Assembly (NCBI GenBank): GCA_001783275.1
Contig: MFRH01000001.1
Location: forward strand, 1 to 63,743
Source of the DNA: Candidatus Margulisbacteria bacterium GWF2_35_9
GTDB taxonomy: Bacteria > Margulisbacteria > Riflemargulisbacteria > GWF2-35-9
Direction: 5' to 3'
Length of the DNA: 63,743 bases
The translations under genes were made by a program, and so were the position numbers. Positions 28,605 through 40,600 of this stretch are shown piece after piece. A model generated the notes under the pieces. That model was not told where the DNA came from. It did no database searches and saw only the letters and a program-made list of their open reading frames with translations. The stretch's first letter is position 1. Every line of letters starts with the position of its first letter.

Positions 28605-31600
28605 GTGGGAATAAATAGACTGGAATTAAATTTTAACAGTTTACCAAAAAACACAAAAATTGAATCAAAAGAACAAACTGCGGACCCCCGCAAACAAGCT
28701 TGTGATTTTTTAGCGAAACAATTACAACCAAAATTACTGAGCTCGTTAGGTATCCAGATAAATTATGAGAACTTACTTCTAATCCTTTTGGGGACGAGTA
28801 CCGGGGATAAGTGGATTGTAGGAGATTTTGATCGGGATGGAAATCCAGACATTTCCTTAGACGACCTATATGAGAGTTTAAAAACTAAGCTAGGTACAGA
28901 TCCAAATAATCCACTGAATAAAATTTCAAAAGAAGAATTTTCTAGAAAATTATCAGTGTCTAGTCCAATTTCTGGAACTGCCGAGCAATTCGGATTGCAG
29001 ATAGAAACGTTTGCAGATAATGGGTCAATAGACGCAAAAATATCAGCCTGGCTAGAAAAGGGTGGAGATTTAAGTGCCGTATTCACTGATTTACAGAATG
29101 AACAAAATCCGAGTGCATTAACGGTGAATTTTATAAAGCTGATACAGAGTATTCAACAACGGGATGGTTCTGTAGATATTGGTGTTATCGACAACTTGAG
29201 AGAGTTAAAAATCCTCACCAAAGATTTATTGGAAGGAAAATCAATTGATTTTGATCAAATTATAAGTAATGACATATCAAAAGAAGCCCTAGAAGAATAT
29301 TTTGGTCCAGATGAAAAATTAGATTTCAATGATCTAATTACATTTACAACCTCATTAGCCGATATTACTCATTTATATGGTTTTAAAAGTGGGGAAATGA
29401 AATATTTCTCCGATATGATGAAGCTTTGTTTAAAAGCAACAAAGTTCCTGAAAGTGAATCGTGGAGATAATCCCGCTGATTTAACTCAGGCTGTTTCGGA
29501 AAACAAAGGCGAAAAGGGATTGAAAATAGAACAAGCACAGGTAGAAGTGGCAACAAATGAATTCGTAACAAAGCTGACTGAAAAGGTTGATTTTACAGAT
29601 ACAGATAAATTTACAAACAGTATTATTTCAAATGCGCCAATAGAAGATGGAAAATTAGTATTAAAATACCAATCAAAGGAAAAGAAAGAAGTGACGATTG
29701 AAATATCAAAAAGTGACTTCGATAAATTTCTAAAATTTTGGTATAAAATTATAAACCCAGCTCTGACAGGTGACGATTCATCGAGAAAAGAATCCTTTAA
29801 TGTTGATTTTAAAGATTGGTTAGAGATACAACTCAGAATTTATTCAATGGGTATTGAAGACGCTGTAAACGTTGTAATTGGCGCTCAAGCAAGATCACCT
29901 CACGTACAGAAGAAAGTCCAGCAGGTAGTACCAAAACAATATGAAAAAGAACTAGTAGAAAAAGGGCAACAAGAACAACCGACTGTTGAGCCTCTCCCAG
30001 TTGACGAGAAGCGAGCTGTTACTCAAGAACTAAATCCAGCACCTCCCTCAGAAACAAGCAAATCAACTGATTCAGTTGCATCTAGTCAAGAACCCGCTCA
30101 AAATAACCAAGCACCTTTAGAAGAGGCGAATAAAGTTAGACTAGAACCCAAAGAAGCTAGCGGAGACCCAGTTGTAAAGAAGGGTGAACCTGCGCCAGTT
30201 GTAAAACAGCAAGAACCGCCCCTAGTTGAAAAGAAGTCAGATGTTGTTCAGGAACCAAATCCAGCATCTCACCAAGAAGAAATAAAATCAACTGATCCAG
30301 ACGCAACCAGCCAAGAAAAAGTTCAAGACAACCAAGCACCTTTAGTACAGGCGAAAGAAGTTAGCTCCGAACCCAAAATAGGTGGTGAAATTCCTGTTGA
30401 AAATAAGGGAGATGCGCGAAGCATTACGGTTCAACCCCCTGTAAAAGAGACTAGAAAGGATGACGAGGGAAAAGGATCTTCAAAAGTCCCTTTATTTACG
30501 TCTCTATTTTCAGAAGAAATCAAAGCAGCAGAGGGGCAGATCGTTAAAGCAATAGAGACAGCTAAAATAAAAAAAGATCAAAAATATAACGAAGTTGTAA
30601 TGAAGGCAAATAGCCAAGATAATGAAATGCTTACACTATTAAAAAAGCTTCAAAGTACAATTGGGGATAAGAAAATATTTGATATTTTCAAAACAAATCT
30701 TCTTGAAGGCTTAAAACAAGTGCCAAAATATAATGATCCTGAATTACTACAAGCAATAGAGAAACTGACCTATGAAGAAGTAAGAAGTGATAAAAAGGTA
30801 GCAGGTAGTCCAAATAAATATTTTGTTGAGCTAAATAATATGCAAACATTTCTAAATAACCAAGACGAAATAAATAAGATACTGTATAACCTTTGTGCTT
30901 CTTTTTTATTATTAAAAGAACTTGGATATAAAGAACCTGATATTTTAAAAATGTCAGTGAATGACATGAATAATCTCGTAATAAATCGTTTGAGCGCTGA
31001 TTTAATGCCGAATGTTGATTTTCCTAAGTTTTGTGAGGATATGGATTTTGCTATAAAATTAATAACATTAAGTGATAATAAGAAAAATATAATAATAAAA
31101 GCGGATGGGACAGAGAAATTTAATCGTTTTGTATCATACTTTAAAAAGATAATCGACAAGTACCCAGATGTAATAAAAATGTTGCCTGTAGAAAAAGCCT
31201 TAGCAGAGGGAAAGGAAGAATATAGCTACAAAGTAGAGGGGTTCGGTATAATTAAATTGGCATATAAACCTGAAGGAGCTGATATTAAAACAAATGATCC
31301 TGAATCCACTAAGTTAGATACTAAGCATAAAGCACTGAGACAGGAACTTCTTGAAAAGTTTTATAACAGAGATTCAGGATCATTTCCTGTATCCTATAAG
31401 AAGAACCCAGCGAATGATCAAGAGGAAAAGCAAGGGCTAACGATATTAAAAGACTCTGTTCATTCAGATTATTTATTGGATGATAAACGAGTTGATGTTC
31501 CCTTGACTTATGCGATAGCCTCCATGAATCAGCTTATTTATAAAGATAATATAGAGGAAGCTTTACATAAGTGTGTTTCGATTCTTTCCAAGTATTGGCT

Positions 31601-34600
31601 GAAAGAAAAAATAGATAATTATTTTAATATTTCTGAGGGTACTATTTCTTTTAAGGATGGGAAGGAAATAGAAGCTGATTTCATGAAGGAACAAAACGAA
31701 CTTCCCGCTGATTCTGGTATACAAAGTGCTTTTGAAACATTCATCGAACTAAGAAATAAATCAAATGATTGGCAATTTTATAAAGGCAACGATAGTCAAG
31801 AGTTAAATAGAGATTTTAGACAGGAAATAGAGAAGGCTGAGAAAAAAGGAGGGGCAGGAGGTACTATTCCCCCAACGAACCAACCTGTTACAAAAGTAGA
31901 GACAGTCTATAATGGGATGAAAAATGCATTTGGACTTAGTCTGGCTTTTATTGAAAAACCAACACTCGGCACGGTCCCTCCAATAGACGACTGGCATATG
32001 ATCAATATAAAAGTAGCCTATTTGAAAGAGAAACACCCAGAACGCTATCAACATTTAATGGCTATTAAAGAACACATTGGGTTAGGCCGTGAAATGAAGG
32101 TTGATATGAAAAAAGAATTTGACGATTTAATTAGTATGGATAAAGACTTTTATATATGGCTCGCTGAGACATATTTGCCAAAAGGTGTTGGGCAAGTTAT
32201 TGATGAGTACGTTATAACAAATATTCAAAAAGCATTATTTCGTAGCGAGAATATTCTGCTACCAGATAAACGTAGTCTTAGTTTGTCACAAATTATGGAG
32301 GAGTATAGGCAAATATTAAATGATAGAACTGCATTGGATGATATGTTTTCATGGAACGACATTGGGGTTGAAGCAGAGCAAATAATGATAGGCCGTGGTT
32401 TTGTTCGAAATGAGAAACTAGTAAAATTTCCTTCTAGTGGAGAAATCGATTCCATCAATACTATCTTATTGAATCAGAGAATTCTACAAGAGCTTAATAA
32501 AAAAGGTTACAAAAAACTTGAAGACGCTCCTGAAGATATAGTAAAAGAGATTCGAATATCGTTAAAAGACAACTTTAAAGGGGTAACAATTGAGGCTATA
32601 ACCAAGAGACAAATTTTTCAAGGTGCTACCAATTTGTTACTGCAAGGTATAAATATAAACAGTTCGGGTAGTGTTGATAAAACGGAGAAATATTTTGGCT
32701 TAGATACTGTCAAAAATACTTTTAATACACTATTTATTGGTGAGGTTGTGACTGAGCATTTTGGAGCTACAATAAAATCTCAATTACTGACATCAAAGAC
32801 GGATGAAGCAGCAGTTCAAAAATTAAAACTCAGCTTTCTCGGATCAGATATTGATGATTTGGATGCCAGCCATATAAAAATAATAGCAGAAATGGTGATC
32901 GATTCAGGTTCTAGGTTAGGAAAGGATTCAAAAGAGTATAAGTGGGCGTTAGATAAAGCTGCAGCATTAAACAGCTTAGCCAATAGTTTAACTAAACCAA
33001 TGACGTGTACCAATAAGACGCTAGAGGATACTCGGGTACAAACAGTTGTTGATGCGATCTATTTTTTAAGACGGATGTTGGAAAAGAATCGATATATCGA
33101 AATGGGCGGTTCAGCCTATAACAATAAAGTAAAACAAAAGATCTCGATAAATACTCCAACCATCGATAAATTCTTATCGACGGATTTAAGTAAACTAATA
33201 AATAAAACATTTAATCAACCGGAAGAGTTAGGATCAATTCAGGCTCTAAGTGCGATAGGAAGTCTCGCATACCAGCCAATGAAGACTACATACGAATTTG
33301 GTATTGAAATGGGTGTAAACTTAAATGCACTGGGGTTACAAGTTATCCAAAATTTTAGAAACTTTGTAAGTGGTTCAACTTTAAGTATGGTAACCGATGC
33401 AAATGGCAATATTGTAATTGATCAGGAGACTGGAAAAGTATCATTCAGAAAAGTTGGGGATACAGAATGTTTAGACATTGCAGCTCAAATGACCTCGACG
33501 ATCCTTCAGTTAAGATTAATAGCCCCAGTCAAGTTTTATGACTTTTTTGGAATAACAGATGATGTTAATGAGGGTAGTTATTATTCAGCATATATCAAGT
33601 TTGCAACTGCCAACTTTTTAATGTTAAGCTCGGCCAAAGGTTTTTGGAACTCAATGATGGGTAGAGCTTTTAAAACAGTTGGAGTTAAGGACATTGTTTC
33701 CTTTACCGAATTTGCAGCAAGACAGTTTGGCATAAGGTGTGAGACAAAAGCTGGAAGACTTGGTATTTTTGCTCCTATGTTAGATATACTTCAAGCCAAA
33801 TACGACGAAGTGAAGCCAGGGGAAGAAAAGACAAATCTTCAAAACAAGATCTCAAAAATGAAAGATATGATAAAAACGGGCATGAAGGTCGGGAGTTATG
33901 CAATTAATCCATTAGGTCATGAAATGCAGCGTTTAAACAAAATGGCGGATCCTAAAGGGGCGGATGAAAAGAAGATAAGTAAAACTGCCGCAAAGGTTGC
34001 CTTGGGTGTATTAAATAGTTGGCAAGAGTTTAATCAAAAGTATAGTCTATATGCACAAGAAGGAAAACTAATCTCAAAATGGATAACAGATTGTAAAAGG
34101 ATTATTAGTGGTGAAAACGGTGAATTTAAATTGAATGTTGAAGAACATGATTTAAATAAATGGATTAACGGCAATAATGTTTTGAAAGAGCTTGAAAAAC
34201 AAATTCGAATTCCGAGTAGTATTAAAATAAGACTTGGGAATGAAAAATTAGTCGATGCAAAAGTAATAAAAGTATCTATCGGGTCAATAGGATCAAATAG
34301 CGAAGTGTCTCAGGCAAAGCATCCTGTTGACATTAGGGTTCATTATGCTGGACAGGGAGCACCTGTATCCTCAGAAACCGTTTCGGTTGAGCTTGTCATA
34401 AATGAAAGTTTTGTTCGAAATGCATTACGAAACATCAAGATTGGTGGTTTAACTGAGAAACAAAACCTCAAGGTAGCCTATGCACAGTTGTCTCAACAAA
34501 TAAATATGCATATACAGTGGCTAAGTCAGCGAACAACAAATATGGTTTTACCTGTGCCTCATGGAAACGGTGGGCAGGAAGCTATCCTTAATCCACTTGA

Positions 34601-37600
34601 AGTTGAAAAAGGATTATCAAATATAGGCGTCACAGTTGAAAAAGATTTTTCACAACGCATGGCTCTTAATATAGATGGATTCAACCGATTAAAAGACTAC
34701 ATACGTCAAAATAAAATTAATTTACTTACAGAGGAACTATATTATGCCTTTTTAAAAGATGGTTTTTATGAGGAAAGATCCGCTGTAGTTTCAGATAGAA
34801 TTATTTTTGAAGAAATAATCCATCCTTTGTTCAATGCAAAAGATATGGATATAAAAGAATCAACCAAAATAATAGACAAAGATGGAAAATTAAATTCAAA
34901 GGAATTAAGAATAATTCTGAGAGAGAGAATATTAATTGCTATAAAATCTGGAAAAATAACATTACCCGGGTTGGATGCTAATAATCCGGATAATAGTATC
35001 GTTGAAACGTTACTATCTGAAGTCGAAACGAAATTTAACAGATATTATGAAAGTTTTAGTTTTGCAAAAGCAGTGGATAAAGAAATGAAATCTGAAAAAG
35101 TGAACGCATTGTTCAAGGATAAAACAACAGAAATTGCGGAGCTAAATCTATTATTTAAATTATACGATGCAGAGATCAATAAACAGTTGTTTGAGGTAGA
35201 TAAAATACCGCAGAGCATTCGTGATAATGAAGTCTTATTTGATAAGTATTTTAAAAAAATTAAGGGTTCTTCAGATTTTGTAAAAATTAATGGTGATATA
35301 ACCAAAATAATGGAAAGCATAAAAGAAGATGCAAGTTTAAATAAAGCAGATGCCAACCACCTACTTAAGGATTTAGAAAAGGCAAGCAAGTCTACCGATA
35401 AGAAACGAAGAGAAAGTTTCGAACAAGAAATTCAGAAAAGAGGAACATATCTAAAAGAAATATATGAACAACTACAGCAAGACTATAAATCTGCTGTAGA
35501 TTCCAATAATAAGAGTGATATAGAAAAGGTAAATATTCGAAGAGTAGCAATTCTATCAAAATTATATCAAGCATCGGATGGAAAAATACCGAATTTTTCC
35601 CAAACTATGTTTTTAAAATATAACCATTTGCCGGGTAATGATTATTGGTTCAACTTGGGAACAGGTGAAGGGAAAAGTGTTGTTTCATATTTGCTAACGC
35701 TTGACCAACTAATACGAGGTAAGGCGGATGGAGATAAAATAATATTAACATCCTCAGATCCAGCATTGGTTGAGAAAGCATATTTAGAGGCAAGGCCATT
35801 ATTTAAAATGCTGGGAATTTCAGTCAATACGTTCTCTTCAGATTTAAATACCCATTCAATCAAAGAATTGAAATCAAATATGGATAATACGGAAGTTCTG
35901 TTTTGTTTGAATACAGACTTGCACTTCGCAAACGCCCACGATAGGAAACAAGTGGATCCTGAGTATAAAATAATGGCATCATTTGGTAACCGAATAGTGA
36001 TTCATGATGAAGGGGATCTAGCTCGATTTGAAAGTGAACATAACCCAGTTGTTATTTCAAATGCGAGTAGTAGTCTTGATAAATACTCATCTCAGTGGAA
36101 AGACGCAGTGAGTATAATCGAGAATGCAAGCAAGGAAAAAGGTCTTATATCCTGCGATTATAGTAAGAAAACAATTATACTTAATAAAGAACTAGTCCCA
36201 TATATAAAGATGCACGCTCCGAGTATTTATAAATTGATTACATCATCAGACAGCGCTGAAAAAGCAGCCGGATGGAAAATTCTGTCAGCATCTGCCAGAG
36301 TGAACTATTTTCATACTAATAAGGTTCATTACGTGGTTGAAGGAAAAAAAGTAAAATTTATATTTGATGTAAGAGAAGTCGTCTTAATCGATGAGCTAAC
36401 AGGTTTTAGAAAACCCGGGCATGCTCTCCAAGATGGATTAATGCAAGCCATTCAAGCGAAAGAAGGCTTGCCGGTACATGAAGAGATGTACTCGGATACA
36501 GTATATCTACCGGAAGATACAATGAAAAAGGCAAAAAGAGGTTTTAGTATCTCAGGTACCTTTGATGTGTCTAAGAGTCTTTTGAAAAAGGCAATGCATG
36601 GTTTGTTTATTCAACCGACTGTTCCAGTAACACGAGTTGATATGCCGGATGTATTAGCAAAGGATAAATTAACTCAGAGCCAAATTATAAGAGATAATTT
36701 GAAATCGCCTGATGTTGCTGATTTTGCTCATTTGATATGTGTAAAAAGTGAAAAAGAAGCAATCGATCTAAAAGACTACCTCAAAAAATATTTTGATGTT
36801 GAAATTGAGATATTGATAGATAGTGAAAATATGCTAAAAAATGAAAGGACTCGAATTCTAAATAATGCGGGAAAACCAGGCCATATAACAATCGCTACAA
36901 TTGCCGGTAGAGGTACCGATATCAAGACACAAAACAAAATGTTAAGCGAATTGGGTAATATTAGTGCTCAAGGGGGGCTAACGGTTACGATAACAGACTA
37001 TTATCAGGATACACGAATAATCGAGCAAATTAGAGGAAGATGTAATAGATTGCTAAATCCTCTTGCTGGTGGTGCTCCAACGGAAAGAGGAAGTGGGAAA
37101 ACTTGGTTGGTTGCATCTTTGGATGGTTTTTATTTCGAAGAGAGACCAATAGAGAAAAATATGCTAAAGAAGCTATTTTTTGATAATAATTCTAAAGCAG
37201 TAGTTGTGAAGGAGGGAAATACTAGAGAACAATACCAGAATAGTGAGAAGAGAGTTGCTAATAAGAAACAGGTAGACGTGTATTTCAACTATATTGAAGA
37301 AGTCTCTGGTAAACCATTAACCGAGAAACAGAAAGCAGAGTACATAGGAGTAATGAAAACTGTTTATGCGGAGAATGAGAATTTGTATAGAATGGGGCAG
37401 GATAGCCAAGGTGAAAGTTTATATGAAAGAAATCAGGCAATATTTAGGTTCGAAGGGCAAATCGGAGATAGATTATCTTCCATAAAGACATCTTCGGAAT
37501 TTATTGATTTTTATATTGATATGATGCACAAATCAGTAGATGCGGTTTTAGTAAATCACAATATAGTGCTAACAGATACCATTAATGAAACTAACATAAA

Positions 37601-40600
37601 GTATTTTAGAGCATATTTTGGTAGAGCAAAGAAACTAGGGCTAGATGTGAATCGTTTAGGTATAAAGAATTTGGACGATTTTATTGGCAAGCCAGTTTAT
37701 GAACTCGTTAATATATTAAAAGAAGAAAAATGGGTCCGAACAAGACTAGAGGATTCTTTTAAAAAGAAATCGTCTGTCCGATCTGATATAGACAATATTA
37801 GAAATAACTTAGAAGTGATATATAACCAAGTAAGAGCAGAGGCACATAAAATGAACCATATTTATGGTAATCAAGTCCAATATCAGACTCATGAAAATGG
37901 ACGAGCCGATCTGGAAAAAGAATTACAGGAAAAACTTGAAAAACATATTTTTAACAAGTTTTCGCTCCGATTTATGGACGAATATCGAGTATTTCTATCG
38001 GGTGAGAAAATAAACCCTAGTAGTTTTTCAAATAAGAGACAATTGACTATCGATGTAGATATTAGCAAAAAAGAATTACTCGAAGAATTTGCCAAGACCA
38101 GAGATTATGTTGAAATAGAGCACATTAAGGAGTTAAATAGTGTGCGTCTATGTTTTAAGAAACTTGCTAATGATCCAGATATTGCTGCCTTAGAATCCAT
38201 ATTATCTTCAAGCGAGTTGGAATTATTAGAAAAAGTACCAAAGAGCGATTATGAGAAACAGACATTAAAAGAATTCGTTGAAAAGAGCCTAGAAGCTACG
38301 TTAAAAGATATCGGATCACCTCTTAAACAATTTGAACCAAGAAAAATACGTTTTATGGGCACTTATTTTTCATTAGGAAATCAAAATGATATTGCGGCAA
38401 TAAATGAATTATTAAATACTCTTGGGTCTAAAAAAATATTAGTTTCAGAGTGGCAGGGCGATCATGATGTTTTCTTTTACGGAGAACAGAAGGGTGCTCC
38501 AGAGATGATAAAAATTAAAAATGCAGATGGTAAAGAGAAAACTGTGCAAGTTGTAACCGTTAGTAAAGAGATAATCAATAATCCAAATAGAGTGTTGGGA
38601 TTCACCTTTATGCAAGAGAGTAATTTATTGGGGCTTGGACGATCTGATAATTTAATTATTCTACGTCCAGATGAAATAAGAAAACAATATCGAGATATGG
38701 CACTGGTAGCATTTAGTCGAAAATATGTTAATGAAAGTGCAAAAAATAGTGCATTTGAATTTTTTAAACTCCATGGGATAGGAAGTTTAGAGGAAGCAGG
38801 GATCGATCCTCGTGATGTACGTAATGATATTTATAATAAAACTCGTTTAAGTGTTGAAGATCAGGATTTAAAAGGAAAAATAGAGCCAATAATAACTCAG
38901 ATGGTTGGAACCGTATTAGAACATGAGAAAGCACACCAAAAAGATGATCCACGACCAAAAAATTATAGCCATTATCGATTTGTGAACGGTGGCCAATATG
39001 TTCAAAACCGAGGCCTAATAGATGTTCTAAGCGAGTTTAGAGCGGATTATGGTGGTAGATTAACAGCGATTCTTGCTATGAAAGATAATGAAGCAAAGAA
39101 ATCAGAATTGGCAAGAATGGGTTATGAAGCAAGTTATTATACAAATGAAACATATAAAAACACCCTGCAACGGGAAGTTGCTGAAGAATTTCTTCAGTTG
39201 TACGATAAAGCAATAGTTGAGAAGGATTATTCAGGTTTAGGAAAATTTGCAGAAAAAATAGAAATTGGCTTTAAGAACAGAATCGAATTATTATGCAAAA
39301 AGTTAGATTTTTACTATAAAAAGGAAATTGGAAAGAGAAAGAACGATTCAACATATGATAAAAAGGTAGTTATGGTAAATGATACGGATTTTGACTCAAA
39401 AAAATCAATTATTGACGAAGAAAACAAAAAGGAAGGCAAATCAGCAGATGAATATATTGTTAAAGCCCACGCAAAAGATATTTTTTCTGAATTTAATAAA
39501 GACGCAATTATTGAAATTAATGAACAGGCTAAAAAATTTAATACTGAGATTCAGGAACGAAATGGTTTAAAACAGGTAAAAGATAACATAATAAATATGA
39601 TTCTAAGTAATCCTGATAACGGAATGAGAGTCTTAGAAGATATTGATATCAGCCTTTCTGAAAGGACGGAGATTATTCAGGAATCATTTGAAAAGGCTTT
39701 CTCTGAAAATAATAATAATCCCAGCGAAATAGAAAAAGAAATATACGTTAGAGCAGGTAGTAACAAAACATCAATCATTGAATTTTTGACAAAGTCAGAA
39801 AAATTTGGAAATAAAAGTCTACTTAACAAGTATTTAATAGCTCTTGCCGTTACTCCGGCGGTTGAAAATAATAACGCATTTAAACCAGAAATGACGCCAC
39901 TAGAGAAAGTTCAAGACTGTAAAAAAATTATATATAATGAATTTACTCAGCACAATGTAAACATGAAGGAGATATTATTCGAGTATCTCAGAGGAAATGC
40001 TGATACGAAAGAAATTATTGAAGACATCGAATCTTCAAAAACAGTTCAAGAGATGTTCAACAATAAATATAGCTGGCAGTTAGTTTTGGAGTGTTTAACA
40101 ATAAGCAAATTAAGTCCTGAACAAGCTGTTAGAATAACGTTGGAAGCATCAAGTGTCCCACTAACAGCGTCGAAAATTCACGAAAAAACGGGCCTAGATG
40201 AAAAGATTGTCGAAGAGGTTCTAAAAGATAATCACTCTTTTATTAAAGCAACAGATGGGTATCAACTCGAGAGAAATGCAAGAATCTCAAAATCCATGGG
40301 GCTTAATACAACTGAAACAAAAATAGATAAAATTCAGAAGTCATTTACGCTTGTGTATGATGGTGCAAAGTGGACAACAAAGGAGAGTTTGTCTCTAGCT
40401 AAAACAGGAGTCAAGGGCGGTCTTTCTGGTGCTGCAGCTGAATCTGTGTCAATGCTTCTTCAAAATATCCTATCAGATAAAAAATTTGTGGGTTTGTTAA
40501 AACCTGGGAATGAGTATTCTTGGAGTCTGAATGATTTAAAACATCCGGCACTTGAAGGCTTCCTGTCTTGGTCAGTTTTTGAAATGAAAAACAAATTTAT

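Follow-up and report, generated by a model that had tools for sequence, protein, structure and literature searches.

The DNA analysed here (hereafter the window) is the 63,743-nucleotide stretch at positions 1 to 63,743 of contig MFRH01000001.1 from Candidatus Margulisbacteria bacterium GWF2_35_9 (assembly GCA_001783275.1), read on the forward strand. At a GC content of ~34%, it devotes 14.1 kb to a single open reading frame (ORF) encoding a giant protein with a SecA-type motor, and shortly downstream lies a gene for a 560-amino-acid (aa) protein. Profile comparison shows that the two proteins are homologous over a region that in each carries an HExxH motif and a Glu residue further on, and that is read here as a new family with a predicted metal site. 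The features on which the comparison rests are the following.

28605..42722, + strand: giant ORF, 4705 aa, GTG start
35631..37049, + strand: SecA-like motor inside the giant (aa ~2343-2815), with DEAD/P-loop and preprotein cross-linking domains
38337..39314, + strand: giant aa 3245-3570, its HExxH domain and a homologue of the 560-aa protein's core
38922..38936, + strand: HEKAH (H3440, E3441, H3444), aa 3440-3444 of the giant, at the C-terminal end of a long predicted helix
39033..39047, + strand: E3477-F-R-A-D3481, the ExxxD motif, in the next long predicted helix, 33 residues after H3444
43367..45048, + strand: stand-alone 560-aa HExxH protein, third gene of a four-gene cassette, in two frames in the window with a one-base gap at 43766
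43807..44703, + strand: stand-alone domain, aa 148-446 of the intact protein, homologous to giant aa 3245-3570

In Pfam and NCBIfam scans of the giant, the motor was the sole part recognised: PF21090, PF01043 and PF00270 matched at aa 2343-2777, and NCBIfam SecA/SecA2 models at aa 2351-2816 (E-values from 1.4e-31 to 7e-19). The motor harbours a Walker A motif (GTGEGKS) at aa 2352 and an AGRGTD motif at aa 2767. The HExxH domain, of ~325 residues, begins further downstream and is internal, with ~670 aa between the last motor motif and HExxH and 1,135 aa following the domain to the C-terminus; a genome-wide hidden Markov model (HMM) search placed the giant-type domain at 38229-39341 of the window. 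The first-pass annotation had described this region as a zincin-like domain paralogous to the downstream gene and had quoted short motifs from both, every one of which was found at its position. In the giant, these are IGSPLKQF at aa 3236 (nt 38310), INELLNTLGSKKILV at aa 3266 (nt 38400), GKIEPIITQMVGTVLEHEKAH at aa 3424 (nt 38874) and LSEFRAD at aa 3475 (nt 39027), together spanning aa 3236-3481 (nt 38310-39047). In the downstream gene, they are GQSPAKEY at nt 43765, INKLLDAVGSPRRILI at 43861, GKIDEFLEAMTENLMYHEIAH at 44233 and MNEVMTE at 44383, in one frame throughout; there, HEIAH (H306-H310) occupies nt 44281-44295 and E342-V-M-T-E346 nt 44389-44403.

The stand-alone gene is interrupted in the window at 43766, and the earlier treatment of its two frames as one fused protein was upheld. 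Its relatives are single ORFs of 547-571 aa; a 99%-identical protein of 560 aa, P0002, is intact and reads KLDQSPAKEY through the break site; and an extra A behind 43766 restores the frame in independently assembled contigs from runs X1 and X2 of the sample. Most likely, then, the window frameshift reflects a mistake of assembly or consensus, or else a minor variant, and the gene is no pseudogene. The near-identical strain L009 has an intact 560-aa gene but a split giant and a split fourth cassette gene, which points to indel errors scattered through these assemblies. A T_TTA_AAA heptamer at 43796-43804, directly before the TAA that closes the upstream frame at 43802-43804, would permit a -1 shift into the downstream frame. 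Programmed -1 frameshifting was ruled out, as P0002 and the independent contigs place the one-base difference at 43766, upstream of the heptamer, which was judged coincidental. One metatranscriptome dataset contained nothing on this stretch.

The similarity escaped simple search methods. A pairwise BLASTP comparison of the giant with the downstream protein returned an E-value of 0.008 over 145 columns, an HMM of the stand-alone family (13 homologues) gave no significant match to the giant (best domain at -0.9 bits), and a word-indexed homologue search with giant aa 3200-3600 gave no match. Profile-profile alignment with hhalign using four giant sequences reached a probability of 64% (E-value 6.5e-5). 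When the four-giant-domain profile was run against a library of 1.84 billion proteins, 26 proteins were retrieved, in which giant-type domains reside either in proteins of 3,758-7,185 aa or in six small proteins (385-490 aa) that are mainly made up of this domain; no 560-family member was among the 26 at E <= 1e-3. Using the resulting 24-sequence domain alignment against the stand-alone family, hhalign reported a probability of 98.3% and an E-value of 2.4e-14 over 269 collinear columns, in which giant aa 3245-3570 align to stand-alone aa 148-446 at ~16% identity, while the controls (one reversed and ten column-shuffled stand-alone alignments) yielded E-values from 0.19 to 0.86. Each subset of the alignment was also sufficient against the stand-alone family, at 1e-10 for the giants alone and 3e-12 for the small homologues alone.

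Furthermore, the four-sequence giant-domain profile matched ORFs in five genomes (G047, G027, G023, G059 and G015; E-values from 8e-5 to 9e-4), and their coordinates fall inside 560-family hits, which identifies them as the 560-family genes of the five genomes. The paralogy claimed by the first-pass annotation was thus borne out: a pairwise HMM alignment is significant once the profile is enriched. With the enriched comparison significant against reversed and shuffled controls, homology between the giant region and the core of the 560-aa protein is established. The relationship is confined to this domain. Between full-length giants and the 560-aa family, aa 3247-3567 was the only matching region, and comparison of the small second-gene protein, the fourth gene and the flanks of the 560-aa protein with full-length giants found no further paralogy.

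The shared HExxH and downstream Glu emerged as the conserved core of the domain. HExxH is kept in 24 of 24 giant-type plus small-type domains. The stand-alone alignment has it in each of its 13 members, and of 20 additional, divergent 560-type members, 19 retain it. Within the 24-sequence alignment, the Glu of the ExxxD/E motif is invariant, and the Ala and the Asp/Glu are nearly so. The spacing from the second His to this Glu is 33 residues in the giant (E3477) and 32 in the stand-alone protein (E342). Other invariant or near-invariant positions, belonging to the beta-sheet subdomain, are shared as well: the N of I-N-x-L-L with the G-S after it, the G of F/Y-G, the E of K-E and an Arg in the last long strand. 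Distant 560-type members read HE[LIV]GHG ... E[FV]LAD[FW] and giants SE[FL]xAD[YF], so that ExxAD is common to both; the window's own 560-aa copy reads NEVMTEF at this place.

Structure prediction gave a similar layout for the two domains. The AlphaFold 2 model of giant aa 3208-3582 has a predicted local distance difference test score (pLDDT) of 74.6 and a predicted template modelling score (pTM) of 0.77, and the AlphaFold model of the stand-alone protein (P0002) 87.5 and 0.84, respectively. In both, the elements follow one order: a pair of short strands and a helix precede a sheet of five or six strands, after which come several helices, a long helix with HExxH near its end and then the helix that carries the conserved Glu. 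In the modelled giant segment, predicted helix 213-238 ends with HEKAH, and in the stand-alone model HEIAH lies within helix 292-315.

Within the giants, the domain holds a constant place. Walker A and HExxH stand 1,031-1,088 aa apart in seven giants whose lengths range from 4,353 to 5,954 aa, and an alignment of nine giants exhibited conservation peaks at aa 1601-1700, over the motor (2301-2800) and at aa 3201-3500. The HExxH domain is hence part of the conserved core of the giant that adjoins the ATPase motor. The order of giant, small protein, 560-aa protein and a 434-622-aa protein recurs at six metagenomic or metagenome-assembled-genome (MAG) loci (L005, L007, L008, L009, L010 and L011), often followed by queC, and in five genomes (G003, G005, G006, G007 and G009) the two domains share a contig and a strand, separated by a few kb. 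The giant and the 560-aa gene are members of a four-gene cassette conserved across the phylum. The named close relatives of the giants and of the downstream proteins come from Candidatus Margulisbacteria and Candidatus Saganbacteria MAGs, and the runs containing the sequence are groundwater metagenomes. Of 61 genomes sampled across the phylum, 41 contain the 560-aa family, often as tandem pairs, and 10 have a detectable giant-type domain.

A maximum-likelihood tree of 54 domains resolved 560-type, giant-type and small-type sequences each as one clade (support 100/100, 99/94 and 99/96, respectively), and giant-type and 560-type copies both occur in genomes of different families and orders. Given these separate, well-supported clades and their joint presence across families and orders, the duplication is old and both copies evolved side by side. 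The family has three architectures: (i) domains inside giants; (ii) the 560-aa cassette protein, a full-length conserved protein with N- and C-terminal domains of its own; (iii) small lipoproteins.

Four readings of the resemblance were weighed. Chance similarity of short motifs in two Lys/Glu-rich, AT-biased proteins would fit the modest BLASTP E-value (0.008), the non-significant match of the stand-alone HMM to the giant and the failure of the giant profile to draw a 560-family member at E <= 1e-3 from the 1.84-billion-protein library; yet with a profile-profile E-value of 2.4e-14 against controls of 0.19-0.86, cross-family HMM matches in five genomes, an identical order of secondary-structure elements and ExxAD common to divergent members, it is regarded as extremely unlikely. 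Hardly more credible is a modular toxin or cargo domain with a swappable free copy downstream. Polymorphic toxin systems reportedly include orphan toxin cassettes (so Zhang et al. are said to have described in 2012), and the locus resembles them in that one domain is found both in a large protein and in a smaller gene close by on the same strand. However, the giant's domain is internal rather than at the extreme C-terminus, with 1,135 aa following; it keeps a fixed distance from the motor and is among the three best-conserved parts of the giant rather than variable; the copies are ~16% identical, without shared flanks, and form reciprocally monophyletic, deeply diverged groups that do not interleave; and the 560-aa partner is full-length, conserved and present in 41 of the 61 phylum relatives. 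The comparison with toxin-domain cassettes drawn by the first-pass annotation was consequently rejected, and ancient paralogy is preferred over cassette exchange on grounds of position, conservation and phylogeny.

The remaining choice concerns chemistry. The two proteins share an ancient domain of ~300-325 residues, belonging to an undescribed family, and we consider it reasonably probable that HExxH and the distal Glu form in it the metal site of a gluzincin-like hydrolase, most probably a peptidase. A catalytic metal site is argued from the pattern of invariant residues. HExxH with an ExxxD motif on a following helix is the signature of thermolysin-type gluzincins, and the His-to-Glu spacing of gluzincins is ~19-70 residues, a range that takes in the 32-33 seen here. 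As in gluzincins, HExxH lies on a predicted helix, the Glu 32-33 residues on in another helix and an Asp/Glu four residues later, with a beta-sheet subdomain N-terminal to the motif. A number of observations weigh against this assignment. HExxH also occurs in metalloenzymes that are not peptidases; one divergent 560-family member (G060) has HKNCR in place of the motif; and four predicted helices stand between the last strand and the HExxH helix, unlike in compact thermolysin-like zincins. No Pfam, NCBIfam or PDB-sequence family matched either domain type: the Pfam and NCBIfam scans, which took in giants, stand-alone proteins, small homologues and cassette partners, matched only the SecA parts, and PDB sequence searches with both domain profiles returned noise only. 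Foldseek searches of PDB with both models and of BFVD with the stand-alone model found nothing at E < 0.05 (best PDB matches at 0.079 for the giant domain and 0.55 for the stand-alone protein, TM <= 0.19), and no metallopeptidase was among the top 50 in spite of reasonably confident models. The clan MA-like fold anticipated in the first-pass annotation was accordingly not recovered, as no peptidase of any kind stood among the top 50 PDB matches of either model; Foldseek could miss a core that is small and embedded in a larger, helical protein, so this weakens membership of the zincins without excluding it.

A real shared domain that is not a peptidase, performing other metal-dependent chemistry or holding a structural or regulatory metal or ligand site (for instance one through which the giant and the 560-aa protein would dock to the same partner), is an unlikely but serious alternative. 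It agrees with the missing fold match to any zincin or other solved structure, with the unusual helical insert ahead of the HExxH helix and with recurring weak GNAT-type matches of the beta-sheet subdomain; it is at odds with the retention of HExxH plus a Glu ~30 residues on in an ExxxD/E helix across very divergent sequences, and the GNAT-like matches are far from significant. These matches, to GNAT-fold acyltransferases, recur for both models in PDB and BFVD and cover ~50 columns at probability 0.06-0.21 and E > 1. On balance, the gluzincin reading is plausible in that it fits the sequence signature, though structure searches do not support it, and the domain is best read as a new HExxH family whose activity is a prediction.

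Under the favoured reading of a gluzincin-like hydrolase, the two His and the distal Glu would bind a metal, most likely zinc, and the Glu of HExxH would serve as general base. The internal copy may cut in cis or nearby, either the giant itself or a polypeptide handled by the SecA-like clamp, as its fixed place adjoining the motor suggests; the free 560-aa copy could be a dedicated partner that acts in trans on the same machinery. A more far-reaching proposal, to which we assign a low probability, is that the giant is a self-contained motor and protease machine, following the logic of FtsH with a SecA motor, in which the SecA-type clamp would thread a polypeptide, be it its own chain or that of a client, and the HExxH domain at a fixed ~1,050 residues downstream would cut it. 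In this proposal, the 560-aa paralogue and the fourth gene would be dedicated trans-acting processing partners, and the whole would form a new class of ATP-dependent processing or export system specific to Margulisbacteria and Saganbacteria.

The arrangement can be compared with known systems. Like FtsH, in which an AAA+ ATPase is joined to an M41 HExxH peptidase, the giant places HExxH at a fixed distance after an ATP-driven motor; the likeness is one of layout only, as the giant's motor is of SecA/DEAD rather than AAA+ type, no M41 match was found and no membrane anchor was detected. The domain also differs from known gluzincins in having no family or fold match to known peptidases and in the helices inserted before the HExxH helix. 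Giant bacterial proteins with divergent SecA_DEAD and SecA preprotein-binding domains were described by West-Roberts et al. 2023 (bioRxiv 10.1101/2023.11.21.568195), who reported Margulisbacteria to be rich in very large genes and Omnitrophota giants to have many transmembrane helices, and who proposed that C39-like peptidase domains process giants; an HExxH or zincin domain is mentioned nowhere in that work (0 occurrences). The window's giant resembles those proteins as a very large ORF with a SecA-type motor that lacks the canonical scaffold and wing, and differs in having no clear transmembrane helices and in being followed by a fixed three-gene accessory set. In a Kyte-Doolittle scan over 19 aa, a crude hydropathy scan rather than a dedicated transmembrane predictor, no window of the giant reached 1.5 (maximum 1.40), while some giant relatives have 1-4 segments that do. 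A literature search for an HExxH domain in Margulisbacteria giants found nothing.

SecA-motor giants are among the least understood large genes of uncultured bacteria. For one of their lineages, the present analysis defines a second conserved module that looks catalytic; its dedicated free paralogue sits in a fixed cassette of four genes that is found phylum-wide. The family comprises 26 detectable representatives in the 1.84-billion-protein library plus the 560-aa branch, without a counterpart in Pfam, NCBIfam or PDB. As a putative new HExxH family, it offers an entry point into the biology of these giants, and if it were a protease, it would provide the first clue to their maturation or their targets.

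The other genes of the cassette and its downstream neighbour are located as follows.

42952..43308, + strand: small low-complexity protein, second cassette gene, 118-121 aa
45038..46678, + strand: fourth cassette gene, 546 aa, overlapping the third gene by 11 nt
46886..47572, + strand: queC, downstream of the cassette, a conserved neighbour in several relatives

The small second-gene protein is conserved in position and poorly so in sequence, and its relatives measure 116-247 aa. The fourth-gene family (434-622 aa) conserves W-x-H-[SNT]-H-P ... G-H-H-F-S and then D-L ~15 residues on; it has no Pfam match and no match in the giant. Its H-x-H-P recalls the JAB/MPN metalloenzyme motif, with a different spacing. 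Members of this family were located at four of the metagenomic or MAG loci.

L005 11697-13001: fourth-gene family
L007 11658-13190: fourth-gene family
L010 11706-13574: fourth-gene family
L011 11753-13417: fourth-gene family

Between the small gene and the 560-aa gene, a perfect palindrome with a 15-bp stem (TTAAATAAGCTAGGG...CCCTAGCTTATTTAA) lies at 43315-43350. It lacks a T-run on the + strand and could represent a hairpin for RNA processing or attenuation, or else belong to the palindromic repeats of the genome. Within the N-terminal part of the giant, aa 472-603 (window ~30018-30410) form two tandem Pro/Glu/Gln-rich repeats of ~75 aa (VTQELNPAPP... and VVQEPNPASH...), a low-complexity linker. 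The third conservation peak among the nine giant homologues, at aa 1601-1700 (~33405-33704), equals the SecA motor in height, and no family could be assigned to it.

The small stand-alone members of giant type (385-450 aa) are encoded in unrelated, housekeeping-like neighbourhoods.

P0035, P0036, P0038 (L012 8001-9305): small stand-alone giant-type members
P0032 (L013 8001-9353): small stand-alone giant-type member

In L012, the gene follows that of a BamD/YfiO-like TPR lipoprotein. At the start of three small homologues, a twin-arginine signal is combined with a lipobox (RRAFL...LSAC, KRRNVL...AAC), which suggests that they may be exported already folded, possibly loaded with metal.

Members of the phylum that are more distant carry the 560-aa family as tandem pairs, with HExxH retained in each copy, and in some of these genomes the open frame around the 560-family genes extends to 770-800 aa.

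G028:C9 77600-83900: 560-family tandem pair
G020:C8 5950-12450: 560-family tandem pair
G016:C1 42250-45750: 560-family tandem pair
G047:C7 36200-39700: 560-family tandem pair
G049:C65 33750-37250: 560-family tandem pair

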